The notes below the pieces were generated by a model. It worked only from the letters and a program-made list of their open reading frames with translations. It made no database searches and was not told the origin of the DNA. The position numbers and the translations under genes are program-made. This document shows, piece by piece, positions 24,322 to 31,712 of a stretch of 64,000 nt of DNA. The stretch spans positions 25,437 through 89,436 of the IMG/VR virus record IMGVR_UViG_3300034105_002625. One strand, given 5' to 3'. Source of the stretch: a virus. Its lineage: Duplodnaviria > Heunggongvirae > Uroviricota > Caudoviricetes. Numbering within the stretch: position 1 is the first letter of the stretch; each line of letters starts with the position of its first letter.

Positions 24322-24783
24322 ATGAAATTTCAATCAACAAAAGTATTTGATGGATACTCTACAGTATTTCGTCAATGGAGAGCAGAAGGTACTCATTGTA
24401 GTTTTCTTCACGGTTATGGCATTTCTTTCAAAATTATATTTGAAGGAGACCTAGACGAAAGAAACTGGGTGTGGGACTTTGGAGGAATGAAAAGAGCTAA
24501 GAACACTATTGATGGTATGGCTCCTAAAGCATGGATGGACTATATGTTCGATCATACATATATCATTGCATTAGATGATCCTTTTCTATATAAAGCACAT
24601 GCAATGCACGACGAAGGTATAGCTCAAGTCCGGGTAGTTCCAGCTACAGGAGCAGAACAATTTGCAAAATTTATTTATGATAAAGTATCTGAGTTTATTA
24701 AAATTGAGACAAATAATAGAGTAAGAGTAGAGAGTGTAGAATTTAAAGAACATAGTAAAAACTCAGCAATATATGGAGAGTAA
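24322..24783 (+). CDS. queD: QueD-like 6-carboxy-5,6,7,8-tetrahydropterin synthase (PTPS fold), with non-canonical metal-site residues
   Basis: 153 aa; C-x3-H-G-Y (CSFLHGYG) in place of canonical C-x3-HGH; GWVWDFG typical of PTPS family. Confidence 0.6.
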   Translation: MKFQSTKVFDGYSTVFRQWRAEGTHCSFLHGYGISFKIIFEGDLDERNWVWDFGGMKRAKNTIDGMAPKAWMDYMFDHTYIIALDDPFLYKAHAMHDEGIAQVRVVPATGAEQFAKFIYDKVSEFIKIETNNRVRVESVEFKEHSKNSAIYGE

Positions 24784-25558
24784 ATTGAAAAGAATAGAAG
24801 ATTATAACAAAACACTTCCCATTGTAGAGCTTTATACAGCAGTGCAATCAGAAGGAAGTAGAGCAGGCTATCCAACGGTAGTAATCAGAACAACAGGCTG
24901 TACTCACAGATGTTGGTTTGGTGATGGTGGATGGTGCGACAGTTGGTACACCAGTATTCATCCTGAAAAAGGACATATTAGTTTCCAAGACATCATAAAC
25001 ATGTATGATGCAAATCCTCACATCACAGAGATGATGTTAACAGGAGGATCACCTACAATGCATCCAGCATTAGTAAACGAATTAACACATTTTGCACATG
25101 AAAGAAATATTTTCATTACGATTGAGACCGAAGGAAGTCATTTTCTTGAAACGGATTACCCAATTAATCTATTATCAATCTCCCCTAAGTTTTCTAACTC
25201 TGTCCCTAAGGTTGGTATTCTTACACCTCAAGGAGATGTGGTTGACGATAAAATGGTTAAGCAACACAACAAATTAAGACTTAACTTTGATGCAATGTCT
25301 AAATCAATTTCATATCATTCTGACTATCATTTAAAGCCAGTATGGGATGGAGAGGATCAAGAAGCATTGAAAGAGATATTAGGATTAATAAAAGTTCTAG
25401 ATATACCTCAGGACAAAGTCTGGTTCATGCCAGCAGGAGATTCAAGAGAGGCTTTATTCAAATCATATCCAAAAATGTTTGATTGGGTGAGAGATAATGG
25501 TTATAGATTAACCTGGAGACCTCACATCATTGCATTTGAAGACCAAAGAGAAGTATAA
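24773..25558 (+). CDS. queE: QueE-like radical SAM 7-carboxy-7-deazaguanine synthase
   Basis: 261 aa; Cys cluster CTHRCWFGDGGWC (Cx3Cx7C spacing); TIM-barrel-like size; in operon with QueD-like. Confidence 0.6.
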   Translation: MESKLKRIEDYNKTLPIVELYTAVQSEGSRAGYPTVVIRTTGCTHRCWFGDGGWCDSWYTSIHPEKGHISFQDIINMYDANPHITEMMLTGGSPTMHPALVNELTHFAHERNIFITIETEGSHFLETDYPINLLSISPKFSNSVPKVGILTPQGDVVDDKMVKQHNKLRLNFDAMSKSISYHSDYHLKPVWDGEDQEALKEILGLIKVLDIPQDKVWFMPAGDSREALFKSYPKMFDWVRDNGYRLTWRPHIIAFEDQREV

Positions 25559-25751
25559 CATGAGACCAGCAACTACAGTAGAAACATTGTACACTCTTCA
25601 TACACTATGGAGAAAGGGACAGATACAAACAGCACAGGTAAAGCATTTAATTAAAACTAGCTGCTTCCTAGAACTAACAAGCATAACAAACGGAGGCATC
25701 ACAGCCGAATCCATAGACGGTAAAACTAAATATTCAATTAAATAAACAAAA

Positions 25752-26045
25752 ATGACGTTACAGGAACTAATTACTTTAGCAGGAGATAGAGATCTATCAA
25801 AATCATATCCAAAAGCAGATGGCCTTTACATCTGGGATTATAAATTACAATTCAATCAGGACTTTGAATTAGACTTAGTACTAATACCAAGCGATTCAGG
25901 AAAGACAGGATTCAAAGACAAAGTGTCAATTCAGGAGTTGGTAACCTATACATTAGGTGAACACAGTCAGGAACTCTCATCAGAACAAATATTATCGGAA
26001 TTACAAATTGTAGGTGTTGAAGGTATAACAGTAGCAAAAGTATAA
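25752..26045 (+). CDS. hypothetical protein
   Basis: 97 aa ORF. Confidence 0.3.
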   Translation: MTLQELITLAGDRDLSKSYPKADGLYIWDYKLQFNQDFELDLVLIPSDSGKTGFKDKVSIQELVTYTLGEHSQELSSEQILSELQIVGVEGITVAKV

Positions 26046-26046
26046 C

Positions 26047-29729: not shown

Positions 29730-30257
29730 ATGATTAGACCTTGGATAGCATTTTTTAGTCAAACAGGATCAGAGATCGTAGAAGTATCAAAGCTTCTAGG
29801 AAGATGGCCTGATATGATAGTAACAAACGAAAGACCAGAACATCTTAGAAAGATTCATCCGGCTTTAGAGAACAAGCATTTAATCTTCGTAGATAATAAA
29901 CCTTCAGAAGAAGAATTAGGACTAATATTAGGTCACTATAAAGAACCTTTAGTAACTCTTCATGGATGGTTAAGAGTTATGCCTCCGGATATCTGTAATA
30001 GGTTTGAAATCTATAATGGACATCCAGGACTTATAACTGAACATCCAGAACTAAAAGGAAAAGATCCACAACAAAAAGCTTTTGACTTAGGATTAGAATC
30101 TTCCGGATGTGTTATTCATAGAGTAACAGAAGGAGTTGATGAAGGAGAGATACTTCGAAGTAGAAAAGTTTCTATAAAAGGGTTGGAAATAGGAGAATTA
30201 TTTCATATCTTACATAGTATATCAGTAAGTCTTTGGGTAGACTTCTTAAAAAATTAG
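29730..30257 (+). CDS. formyltransferase (PurN / Fmt catalytic-domain family)
   Basis: 175 aa; N-x-HPGL (YNGHPGLITEHPELKGKD) and downstream catalytic Asp (EGVDEGEIL) match the formyl_trans_N fold. Confidence 0.6.
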   Translation: MIRPWIAFFSQTGSEIVEVSKLLGRWPDMIVTNERPEHLRKIHPALENKHLIFVDNKPSEEELGLILGHYKEPLVTLHGWLRVMPPDICNRFEIYNGHPGLITEHPELKGKDPQQKAFDLGLESSGCVIHRVTEGVDEGEILRSRKVSIKGLEIGELFHILHSISVSLWVDFLKN

Positions 30258-30259
30258 TT

Positions 30260-30784
30260 ATGAAAAGAATAGCATTAGTAGGAGCATCATCAGTAGGTAA
30301 GACTACGGTATATGAATTACTTAAAAGTAAATTACCTGAGTATGATTTCATAAATGAATCAACAAGAACGGTTGGTAAATTTGGATTTCCTATTAATGAA
30401 GCAGGAACTTCTGAAACACAGCTTGCTATTTCTTCTTTCCATTTAGAAGCTCTATTAGCTCCTAAGGATGTAATCTTAGATAGATGTTATTTGGATTTGG
30501 TAGTATACTCTACTTATATGGATAAGTTATCTACTAGCGCATATGATTACATATTAGATACTTGGGTAAGAGTTAGGCATCAGTATACACATTTTATTTA
30601 CTTCCCTATCGAATTTGCATCAGTAGACGATGGAGTAAGAAGTGTAAACGAAGAATGGAGAGAGGCAATTGATAAGCAGTTTGAAATTAACTTAAAAGCA
30701 ATTAAATTTGCTGGAGGAGATTATTTAACAGTAACAGGAAGTCCTAATCAAAGAGTTGAACAAATATTAAACTACATAAAATAA
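30260..30784 (+). CDS. P-loop NTPase / small-molecule kinase-like protein
   Basis: Walker A ALVGASSVGKTT; start adjusted to Met 30260 (MKRIALVG). Confidence 0.5.
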   Translation: MKRIALVGASSVGKTTVYELLKSKLPEYDFINESTRTVGKFGFPINEAGTSETQLAISSFHLEALLAPKDVILDRCYLDLVVYSTYMDKLSTSAYDYILDTWVRVRHQYTHFIYFPIEFASVDDGVRSVNEEWREAIDKQFEINLKAIKFAGGDYLTVTGSPNQRVEQILNYIK

Positions 30785-30785
30785 T

Positions 30786-31712
30786 ATGACACAAGAATTA
30801 AATCAAGCAGAAGTTGTAAAGATTGCAGGAAAGCATCTAGGACAAGTAGGTGGAGCAGGTTATAGCGATACTTATGATCCAAGCCTATTGGTAGAAATTC
30901 CACGTTACTTGAATAGAGAAGCGTATGGAATTGATGATAACAGTTTACCATTCGTGGGAGGAGATGTATGGAATGCATACGAAGTATCTGCAATTACTAC
31001 AAAAGGACTTCCAGTTGTTGGAATGTTAAAGATTTGGTATCCAGCAGATTCAAAACTTCACGTAGAGTCTAAATCAATTAAATTGTATTTGAATTCATTC
31101 AATATGACTCAATTGGGAGAAACAGATCATGAATGTATCAAGTTACTAAAACAAAGAGTAAAGAAAGACTTATCTGACTTACTACAAACAAAAGTACAGG
31201 TAGAGATGTTTACCTCAGAGCATTCTCCAAGCTATGCCTTCAAAGGATATGCACCACTAGATGCTTTAGTAGATCTAAATGCAATTGAATTTACTTCTTA
31301 CCATTCAGACGCTACACAATTGGAAACAGAAGAAGTAGATGAGGATGTTGAAATAGGAGAAATAAAAGTACAATCAAATCTTTTAAGATCAAATTGTAGA
31401 GTAACAAATCAACCAGACTGGGGTGATGTATTTATTCACATCAAGCCTAAAGCAGGAGTTGTTCCTAATCTACAATCACTAGCAAAATATATTGTAAGTC
31501 ATAGACAAGTAAGTCACTTCCATGAAGAGATTTGTGAAATGATCTACATGCACTTAAAAGAAGCTTACAATCCAGAAGAATTAATGGTAGCTTGTCTTTA
31601 CACTCGTAGAGGAGGATTAGATATTAATCCAATTAGAGCTTCACATAAGAAACTAATACCAGGATTCTTTACAGACATTACTTGTAGAATGGCTAAAACA
31701 TTACGTCAATAA
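30786..31712 (+). CDS. queF: QueF-type NADPH-dependent 7-cyano-7-deazaguanine (preQ0) reductase, bimodular type
   Basis: 308 aa; QueF motif ESKSIKLYL and catalytic-Cys block CRVTNQPDWGDV. Confidence 0.65.
   Translation: MTQELNQAEVVKIAGKHLGQVGGAGYSDTYDPSLLVEIPRYLNREAYGIDDNSLPFVGGDVWNAYEVSAITTKGLPVVGMLKIWYPADSKLHVESKSIKLYLNSFNMTQLGETDHECIKLLKQRVKKDLSDLLQTKVQVEMFTSEHSPSYAFKGYAPLDALVDLNAIEFTSYHSDATQLETEEVDEDVEIGEIKVQSNLLRSNCRVTNQPDWGDVFIHIKPKAGVVPNLQSLAKYIVSHRQVSHFHEEICEMIYMHLKEAYNPEELMVACLYTRRGGLDINPIRASHKKLIPGFFTDITCRMAKTLRQ

Follow-up and report, generated by a model that had tools for sequence, protein, structure and literature searches.

A probable formyl-preQ1-type DNA-modification island with a DpdA3-linked kinase in a relative of phage immuto_2-6A

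Layout of the island and its counterpart in immuto_2-6A

The DNA considered here is a 64,000-nucleotide stretch (the window) of the IMG/VR virus record IMGVR_UViG_3300034105_002625 (Caudoviricetes), which carries a 7-deazaguanine DNA-modification island at positions 24322–31712. The island is a run of tightly packed or overlapping open reading frames (ORFs), all on the plus strand, in which the ten genes listed by a first-pass annotation are intact and uninterrupted. Pfam and PHROG scans of the window proteins recover the same list in the same order, and each family call holds. The run begins with a QueD-like T-fold enzyme, the putative 6-carboxytetrahydropterin (CPH4) synthase (24322–24783; PF01242, E = 1.8e-13; phrog_2389 QueD, 8.8e-40), and QueE, the radical-SAM 7-carboxy-7-deazaguanine (CDG) synthase (24773–25558; PF04055; phrog_2076 QueE, 7.6e-53). 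These are followed by a non-specific DNA/RNA endonuclease of the Endonuclease_NS family with a signal-like N-terminal segment (26047–26625; PF01223, 6.9e-24), a small Gpt/XGPRT-type purine phosphoribosyltransferase (PRTase; 26628–27023; PF00156, 33 bits), the GTP cyclohydrolase I FolE (27095–27805; PF01227, 3.2e-45) and a MazG-like all-alpha NTP pyrophosphohydrolase of the MazG/PRA-PH type (28067–28591; PF01503, 9.2e-10; phrog_671, 1e-28). The distal part encodes DpdA3, a guanine transglycosylase with a zinc-site-free tRNA-guanine transglycosylase (TGT) fold, recognized by homology and predicted fold (28783–29577); the PurN-like formyltransferase DpdN (29730–30257; PF00551, 7e-13, 49.2 bits against a cut-off of 26.1); an AAA_28 P-loop kinase (30260–30784; PF13521, 4.6e-13, 50 bits); and a bimodular QueF, the reductase that converts preQ0 to preQ1 (30786–31712; PF14819 (QueF_N), 8.9e-34; PF14489, 6.5e-21). 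The motifs ESKSIKLYL, CRVTNQPDWG and N-G-HPGL...D are present in the translations. The preQ0 synthase QueC, earlier noted as a QueC-like gene at 4133, was confirmed about 20 kb upstream of the island on the same strand (4133–4996; PF06508, 3.5e-36). A family A DNA polymerase with a 3'-5' exonuclease domain (PolA; 32053–34386, plus strand; PF00476, 8.6e-57) flanks the island, as in the Cellulophaga phage phiST.

The island aligns with phage immuto_2-6A at 84% nucleotide identity across 89% of its length, and no other phage record matched in the nucleotide search. Both phages have the gene order QueD, QueE, PRTase, FolE, DUF4494, MazG, DpdA3, DpdN, kinase, QueF and PolA, with QueC upstream. The encoded proteins are 78–95% identical to those of immuto: QueD 86%, QueE 95%, PRTase 78%, FolE 85%, MazG 90%, DpdA3 87% (over its full length), DpdN 91%, kinase 87%, QueF 81% and PolA 94%. 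The island is the best-conserved stretch of the window with respect to immuto. Only 18–50% of the length of its flanks can be aligned, at 81–85% identity, so the window phage is a relative distinct from immuto at the species level and possibly at the genus level. Two differences lie within the cluster itself: the signal-bearing Endonuclease_NS gene lying after QueE and before the PRTase has no counterpart in immuto, and a small immuto ORF between QueD and QueE is missing from the window.

In immuto_2-6A DNA, deoxyguanosine (dG) was undetectable and all of it was replaced by formyl-dPreQ1 (fdPreQ1), as established by liquid chromatography–tandem mass spectrometry with a synthetic standard (Cui et al. 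2023, PMC10516641). The names DpdA3, for the transglycosylase, and DpdN, for the PF00551 PurN-like protein, were coined for the immuto proteins in that study, so the core finding of a formyl-preQ1 island is already published for a close relative. The DpdN of the window belongs to group 1 of Cui et al., in which it is co-encoded with DpdA and the enzymes from FolE to QueF, and the window encodes that pathway in full. The first-pass annotation had proposed a FolE, QueD, QueE, QueC, QueF and DpdA route to preQ1-type DNA, with further N-formylation by a PurN-like enzyme encoded after DpdA. Both proposals are supported by the correspondence with immuto, whose DNA carries the formylated base in place of all dG. 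Literature searches on DpdA3, fdPreQ1 and a possible pre-replicative route brought up no work later than the 2023 paper.

FolE, QueD, QueE, QueC and also QueF all score above the Pfam gathering thresholds for their families. None reaches its NCBIfam equivalog cut-off (QueD 30 against 89, QueE 56 against 206, QueC 126 against 150 for TIGR00364, FolE 154 against 202, and QueF 265 against 293 for TIGR03138), and these low scores suggest divergent phage versions of the pathway enzymes. Their functional assignment therefore leans on the DNA chemistry of immuto. The QueD-like protein reads T-H-C-S-F-L-H-G-Y, with C-x3-H-G-Y in place of the QueD signature CxxxHGH; the same variant is found in the QueD proteins of the window, immuto and phiST.

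DpdA3 and DpdN

DpdA3 has 264 residues and no Pfam match. It is 42% identical to gp056 of the Campylobacter phage CP220 over 96% of its length, and a sequence search against the PDB gave no useful solved relative. An AlphaFold2 model built on 45 diverse family members has a mean predicted local distance difference test score (pLDDT) of 97.2 and a predicted TM-score of 0.93. The best 50 PDB matches of this model in Foldseek are all TGTs or the bacterial DpdA 7ui4 (probability 1.0, TM ~0.6). The protein contains three cysteines, and the CxCxxC zinc motif is missing from its translation, which bears out the earlier call of a DpdA-like TGT fold without a zinc site at this position. The residues D53, D84, R164, H184 and G187 do not vary among 45 DpdA3 family representatives, in which D207-T-S is conserved to at least 90%. 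Alignment of the DpdA3 profile with E. coli Tgt by hhalign is partial (residues 83–195 only, E = 0.002) and places HHLLGCGLPQE of DpdA3 on RYLMGVGKPED of Tgt; correspondences to the catalytic Asp residues are motif resemblances only. By homology, then, the protein is a putative zinc-free TGT-fold member of the DpdA3 subfamily that would exchange guanine. Its net charge and isoelectric point, taken as a proxy for DNA binding, do not discriminate (family median −8, polymerase −13).

The exchange of guanine for a 7-deazaguanine by a TGT-fold enzyme would be common to DpdA3, the bacterial Dpd system (DpdA/DpdB/DpdC) and the phage enzymes DpdA1 and DpdA2. Bacterial DpdA has 413 residues, about 150 more than DpdA3, which differs further in lacking the zinc motif. 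The partner of the bacterial enzyme is DpdB, whereas DpdA3 is accompanied by a kinase-fold protein. Replacement by other DpdA types amounts to <0.1–30%, against 100% for DpdA3 (PMC10516641, PMC10164549). The DpdA3 family comprises 1560 clusters at 50% identity, and 591 IMG/VR stretches were confirmed as encoding a relative. Some representatives carry additional segments: the C-terminal tail of P0197 matches GNAT weakly (E = 0.047), the N-terminal 317-residue domain of P0123 matches nothing in Pfam, and P0126 carries a tail corresponding to a NUMOD3 homing endonuclease.

The nearest solved and NCBIfam relatives of DpdN are PurN/GART enzymes. The first-pass annotation had considered a grouping with Met-tRNA formyltransferases (Fmt); DpdN groups instead with PurN (51.5 bits against 20.6 bits for Fmt), at a score well below the PurN cut-off of 150. 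We rejected its identification as an Fmt, or as a genuine PurN, in view of its scores, length and context. When 72 members of the family were aligned with E. coli PurN, N96, H98 and D137 of DpdN fell on N106, H108 and D144 of PurN; these residues are invariant in the family, and the PDB alignments agree. The N-terminal S-x-x-G-S-E loop also aligns with the PurN loop that binds the phosphate of glycinamide ribonucleotide (GAR), and S-x-x-G-S is invariant. The Formyl_trans_N fold, the N-H-D triad and this loop are thus common to DpdN and E. coli PurN. The two proteins differ in length (175 against 212 residues, DpdN being shorter in its C-terminal part), in a family-specific E-L-K insert that only DpdN has after HPG, and in the predicted acceptor, which for DpdN would be the preQ1 aminomethyl group. 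The formyl donor of PurN is N10-formyl-tetrahydrofolate, and 5-methyl-tetrahydrofolate cannot donate a formyl group. Because PurN uses it, N10-formyl-tetrahydrofolate is by analogy the most likely donor for DpdN as well; the donor named in the text of PMC10516641 is 5-methyl-tetrahydrofolate.

DpdA3 and DpdN occur as natural single-chain fusions of 447 residues in P0168 (locus L106, 2262–3605) and P0215 (locus L105, 554–1897), which belong to separate 50%-identity clusters. An AAA_28 kinase gene adjoins both fusions: in L106 it lies downstream, and in L105 it lies upstream with overlapping ORFs. These fusions provide Rosetta-stone support for a coupling of DpdA3 and DpdN that had earlier been based on gene proximity only. 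Wherever QueF is missing (CP220, phiST and locus L113), DpdN is missing too, as expected if DpdN needs the aminomethyl group.

Three loci with a DpdA3 77–81% identical to that of the window (L022, L028 and L029) have no DpdN. At 6146–8812 of L029 (IMGVR_UViG_3300009151_007512), the interval between DpdA3 and the kinase/QueF genes contains a NUMOD3 homing-endonuclease-like ORF, a 508-residue protein with HAD-like and GNAT acyltransferase parts, and a 124-residue protein of the glyoxalase/VOC fold. Since a GNAT acyltransferase stands in the place of DpdN, this tailoring slot may be swappable, and other, so far undescribed, N-acyl-dPreQ1 bases may exist.

Gene content was compared across 54 IMG/VR loci that extend 4 kb or more beyond DpdA3 in both directions; these loci are mutually related, and the counts are descriptive. 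QueF is present in all 54, DpdN, adjoining DpdA3, and FolE each in 52, the kinase in 50, the PRTase in 42, MazG in 41 and the nuclease in 24. Among the 16 loci whose DpdA3 is <65% identical to that of the window, DpdN and QueF are each retained in 16 and the kinase in 12; the PRTase is found in 5 and MazG in 3. The core is therefore DpdA3–DpdN–(kinase)–QueF, and the PRTase and MazG, which drop out in distant DpdA3 loci, are lineage accessories.

Kinase, accessory enzymes and flanking genes

The most likely start of the kinase is the ATG at 30260 (MKRIALVG...), directly past the DpdN stop, because the immuto annotation agrees; a TTG at 30233 is less likely. The protein contains the Walker A sequence GASSVGKTT, and the Walker A, DR and DDGVRS motifs are invariant in its family. 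A PDB search with the single sequence gave nothing useful. A family profile gives a full-length match to the ribosylnicotinamide-kinase (RNK) domain of NadR and matches deoxynucleoside kinases (dNK) and thymidylate kinases (TMPK) as well. The other matches listed for this profile are P-loop-only (ABC-F ATPases, GTPases), and no DpdB-like ATPase is among them. The top Foldseek matches of the AlphaFold2 model (pLDDT 88.9) are deoxyadenosine, deoxyguanosine and deoxycytidine kinases, NadR (TM 0.77) and thymidylate kinases. The best 50 fold matches listed are all small-molecule kinases (dNK, NadR-RNK, TMPK and shikimate kinase), with no polynucleotide kinase or DpdB-like ATPase among them. We read 'thymidylate kinase' and 'nicotinamide riboside kinase' in the databases as family labels only. 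From the model and profile matches, we conclude that the P-loop protein is predicted to phosphorylate a nucleoside or nucleotide.

The kinase gene adjoins DpdA3 in CP220 and in loci L105, L106, L110 and L113. In CP220, the DpdA3 homolog gp056 is followed directly by gp057, which is 32% identical to the window kinase (E = 1e-19). Kinases only 34–37% identical to that of the window occur again within DpdA3 clusters, among them L113, which has neither QueF nor DpdN. Because the kinase is kept in clusters without QueF and DpdN, it is linked to DpdA3 and not to formylation. The words 'kinase' and 'phosphoribosyl' do not occur in the text of PMC10516641, and no mention of a kinase partner of DpdA3 was found in the literature searchable for this analysis. 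Streptomyces phages also carry homologs, and there no deazaguanine genes lie nearby, so context alone is no proof of the kinase's role. Two candidates were rejected in this connection. A 256-residue 'methyltransferase' beside the kinase homolog in a Streptomyces phage is an FkbM methyltransferase and not a hidden DpdA3 (hhalign probability 0.3%), and the phiST gene beside its PRTase, considered as an AAA_28 member, gave only P-loop matches and resembles a dNMP kinase. The QueF-less cluster of L113 also contains a QueE with an intein (1149–2480; Hint and Intein_splicing matches) and, directly upstream of DpdA3, a DUF6884 protein (4288–4944).

CP220 (Firehammervirus) resembles the window and immuto in its DpdA3 homolog, adjoining AAA_28 kinase homolog and complete dG replacement. 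It differs in having no QueF, no DpdN and no PRTase homolog detectable by tblastn at E ≤ 1e-3, and its product is dADG, the 7-amido derivative of 2'-deoxy-7-deazaguanosine. Where the window has MazG, CP220 has gp055 (L031, 10862–11893), which joins an HD-domain phosphohydrolase to an AAA_33 kinase domain and lies directly upstream of DpdA3. The CP220 DpdA3 thus has a nucleotide hydrolase/kinase as one neighbour and the AAA_28 kinase as the other. In phiST, which makes 2'-deoxy-7-deazaguanosine (dDG) with DpdA3 and DpdL, the order QueD-QueE-FolE-MazG-...-DpdA3-...-PolA matches the window and replacement is again complete. It differs in having DpdL in place of QueC, QueF and DpdN, and no detectable AAA_28 kinase. 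Its homologous small PRTase (31% identity) lies elsewhere in the genome, beside a dNMP-kinase-like gene and ribonucleotide reductase.

The PRTase has a type I PRTase core with the phosphoribosyl pyrophosphate (PRPP)-binding motif VVDDICDTGETL. Its best matches among solved structures are Sulfolobus GpT-1/2, the P. horikoshii purine PRTase (1vdm) and E. coli XGPRT; its match to PRK09177 covers the N-terminal part only and, at 52.6 bits, does not reach the cut-off of 138. Besides phiST, homologs are found beside FolE/QueD in Vibrio phages. In the Stenotrophomonas phage vB_SM_ytsc_ply2008005c, gp47 (L109, 4902–5795), annotated as GTP cyclohydrolase I, is a PRTase–FolE fusion. Residues 6–121 form a small PRTase of the window's family (37 bits to the profile, full length) and residues 118–296 form FolE, in a QueE-QueC-QueD-gp47-DpdA-PolA cluster whose DpdA is of the ordinary type. 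Similar PRTase matches by tblastn lie beneath FolE annotations in Sphingomonas and Pseudomonas phages. Base exchange frees one guanine for each GTP spent on a new base. That the PRTase is fused to FolE, the first, GTP-consuming enzyme, in a phage whose DpdA is ordinary favours recycling: the Gpt-like PRTase most likely converts the released guanine to GMP and hence supplies GTP for FolE. The first-pass annotation had suggested undescribed steps by the kinase and the PRTase. That suggestion is sharpened as a lead by the kinase fold, the linkage to DpdA3 and the PRTase–FolE fusion, which fall short of proof.

MazG scores 39 bits against a PF01503 cut-off of 21. Its EELEE and D-x-x-D acidic motifs are conserved, with E46, E49 and D58 invariant, and sequence and profile searches against the PDB gave no useful or close solved relative. 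The nuclease, inserted inside the modification island, has a DKGH motif and the signal-like N-terminus MKKFLLLLLLPLIGFG. The gene and family call of the secreted nuclease stand, whereas its listing as a part of the island does not hold as a fixed feature: besides its absence from immuto, the gene is about 90% identical in some relatives and lies elsewhere or is missing in others.

Several small ORFs, all on the plus strand, complete the run. They are a conserved ORF with no Pfam match (25752–26045; immuto gp59, 67% identity), a DUF4494 protein (27817–28014; PF14902, 2.8e-11; immuto gp62, 91%), a small acidic conserved ORF with no Pfam match (28593–28790; immuto gp64, 53%), a weakly conserved ORF between DpdA3 and DpdN (29561–29737; immuto gp66, 40%) and a conserved ORF in the gap between QueF and the polymerase (31712–31993; immuto gp70, 49%), which is present in many related loci. 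Upstream of the island are a short match to Cellulophaga phage tRNA-Met genes (11021–11071), a calcineurin-like metallophosphoesterase (12999–13649), an RNA ligase with an OB-fold domain (14256–15398) and a 426-residue thymidylate synthase (20687–21967). The Pfam match of the last falls in two stretches, which suggests a large insertion, and the immuto ortholog is of similar length. Directly after the DNA polymerase, positions 34450–36398 encode GroES (by synteny with immuto gp73) and GroEL (PF00118, 1e-69). Megablast synteny with immuto gp90–gp102 outlines a large putative sugar-modification cluster at about 41100–55500, with several glycosyltransferases, WecE-type aminotransferases, an epimerase and a methyltransferase.

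Proposed pathway and alternative routes

The island very probably directs the synthesis of preQ1 from GTP, its exchange by DpdA3 and its formylation by DpdN, with fdPreQ1 replacing dG as the product. By established queuosine biochemistry, FolE would convert GTP to dihydroneopterin triphosphate, the QueD-like enzyme would make CPH4, QueE CDG and QueC preQ0, and the bimodular QueF would reduce preQ0 to preQ1. DpdA3 would then swap guanine for the 7-deazaguanine, and DpdN, as a truncated PurN with an intact Asn-His-Asp triad, would move a formyl group onto the 7-aminomethyl nitrogen; fdPreQ1 in place of dG would blunt restriction enzymes. The AAA_28 kinase, a steady companion of DpdA3, may phosphorylate a guanine or 7-deazaguanine (deoxy)nucleoside or nucleotide, the MazG-like enzyme may hydrolyse an NTP or deoxynucleoside triphosphate (dNTP), and the PRTase may return released guanine to GMP. 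We infer the enzyme assignments of DpdA3, DpdN, PRTase, kinase and MazG, and likewise the level, DNA or nucleotide, at which exchange and formylation take place.

Several points weigh against this assignment. The DNA chemistry was determined for the relative immuto. The pathway proteins all fall under their equivalog cut-offs, and the second His of the QueD signature is replaced by Tyr. Expression of DpdA3 in E. coli gave no modification, no DpdA3 has so far given a successful biochemical assay, and the formylation activity of DpdN is a prediction in the reference study too (PMC10516641). The roles of the PRTase, kinase and MazG rest on context, the first and last of these are not core, being missing from most distant loci, and the 54 loci are kin and not independent observations. 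An assignment of the genes to host-type metabolism, either tRNA queuosine or purine synthesis through a PurN auxiliary gene, is highly improbable. Cyanophages carry purN-like auxiliary genes and Que genes are common to tRNA queuosine synthesis, but the island has no zinc-site tRNA-type TGT, and its 175-residue DpdN is far under the PurN cut-off and forms a fusion with DpdA3 in some relatives. DpdN directly follows DpdA3 in almost every related locus and is itself followed by QueF, with or without the kinase between, and the DNA of immuto is chemically modified (PMC10516641). We also consider it unlikely that the PRTase makes a 7-deazapurine ribonucleotide from PRPP and preQ0, preQ1 or CDG, in the manner of TubE or ToyH, in place of guanine salvage. 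TubE has been proven to act as a CDG:PRPP phosphoribosyltransferase, and its gene neighbours the GTP cyclohydrolase I and CPH4 synthase genes of its cluster (tubC and tubA; PMC6112128); the window PRTase likewise adjoins FolE, with related PRTases beside FolE/QueD in other phages. Its closest solved and curated relatives, however, are xanthine/guanine PRTases, its family is fused to GTP-consuming FolE in a phage whose DpdA is ordinary, most distant DpdA3 loci lack this PRTase, and a ribonucleotide product would need a reductase, of which none was seen in the scanned parts of the window.

The same fdPreQ1 product could instead be made pre-replicatively at the nucleotide level, on the pattern of T4 hydroxymethyl-dC, a route that we regard as possible but doubtful. 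MazG would convert dGTP to dGMP, depleting dGTP; DpdA3 would swap the base on dGMP or dG; DpdN would formylate the monophosphate, in the way that PurN acts on the ribonucleotide GAR; the AAA_28 kinase would form the diphosphate and the host nucleoside diphosphate kinase the triphosphate; the adjacent PolA would incorporate it and the PRTase would recycle guanine. T4 hydroxymethyl-dC and S-2L diaminopurine are products of pre-replicative pathways with complete replacement of one base. Their combination of NTP pyrophosphatase, base-modifying enzyme, dedicated nucleotide kinase and phage polymerase recurs here, a hypothetical likeness in which the island differs by having a TGT-fold transglycosylase as its modifying enzyme. 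A nucleotide-level route would fit a kinase of dNK/NadR/TMPK fold, neither DNA-acting nor DpdB-like, that stays beside DpdA3 in fdPreQ1, dADG and QueF-less clusters. It would also fit the NTP hydrolase beside DpdA3 in immuto-like phages and phiST (MazG) and in CP220 (HD domain), the retention in DpdN of the loop that lines up with PurN's phosphate-binding loop, the DpdA3–DpdN fusions, which are typical of consecutive small-molecule steps, and the bare 264-residue barrel of DpdA3 with its few conserved basic residues. Also in its favour are the 100% replacement in all three tested DpdA3 lineages, the inactivity of DpdA3 alone in E. coli and, as cited in the same paper, the ADG nucleoside in CP220-infected cells (PMC10516641). 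On the other side, every characterised DpdA/TGT enzyme acts on polynucleotides (PMC10516641, PMC10164549), and the authors of the reference study conclude, from DpdA homology, that modification is post-replicative (PMC10516641). Many distant loci lack MazG and the PRTase, and 4 of the 54 lack the kinase; the kinase family also occurs without deazaguanine genes, as in the Streptomyces phages, overall protein charge does not discriminate, and a mononucleotide substrate is itself hypothetical. The inactivity of DpdA3 alone could also be read as the lack of an ATPase cofactor that drives DpdA3 on DNA, with the P-loop protein in the role of DpdB, by whose ATP hydrolysis bacterial DpdA inserts preQ0 (PMC10164549), and not a metabolic kinase. 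Tight adjacency of the kinase and DpdA3 genes, with overlapping ORFs in L105, agrees with such a role. We consider it very unlikely, given the small-molecule kinase fold and profile matches, the conserved DR and DDGxR motifs and the absence of polynucleotide kinases and DpdB-like ATPases from the 50 best fold matches listed.

Under the favoured reading, in which fdPreQ1 replaces dG, the island represents a second, divergent lineage of the only phage group known to write formyl-preQ1 at all G positions. The hundreds of related loci (591 IMG/VR stretches; 1560 clusters at 50% identity) indicate that formyl-preQ1-type chemistry is common in aquatic viromes, and the L029-type loci, with a HAD and GNAT acyltransferase and a VOC-fold protein for DpdN, hint at further N-acyl preQ1 bases. 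What is new here is the kinase lead, together with the DpdA3–DpdN and PRTase–FolE fusions as Rosetta-stone evidence of coupling, all of which is testable with a few recombinant proteins. The 2023 study left the question of how DpdA3 reaches complete replacement and why it is inactive alone (PMC10516641), and the AAA_28 kinase is a candidate for its missing partner. If true, the pre-replicative route would explain both observations and would be the first transglycosylase-based rewiring of a dNTP pool.

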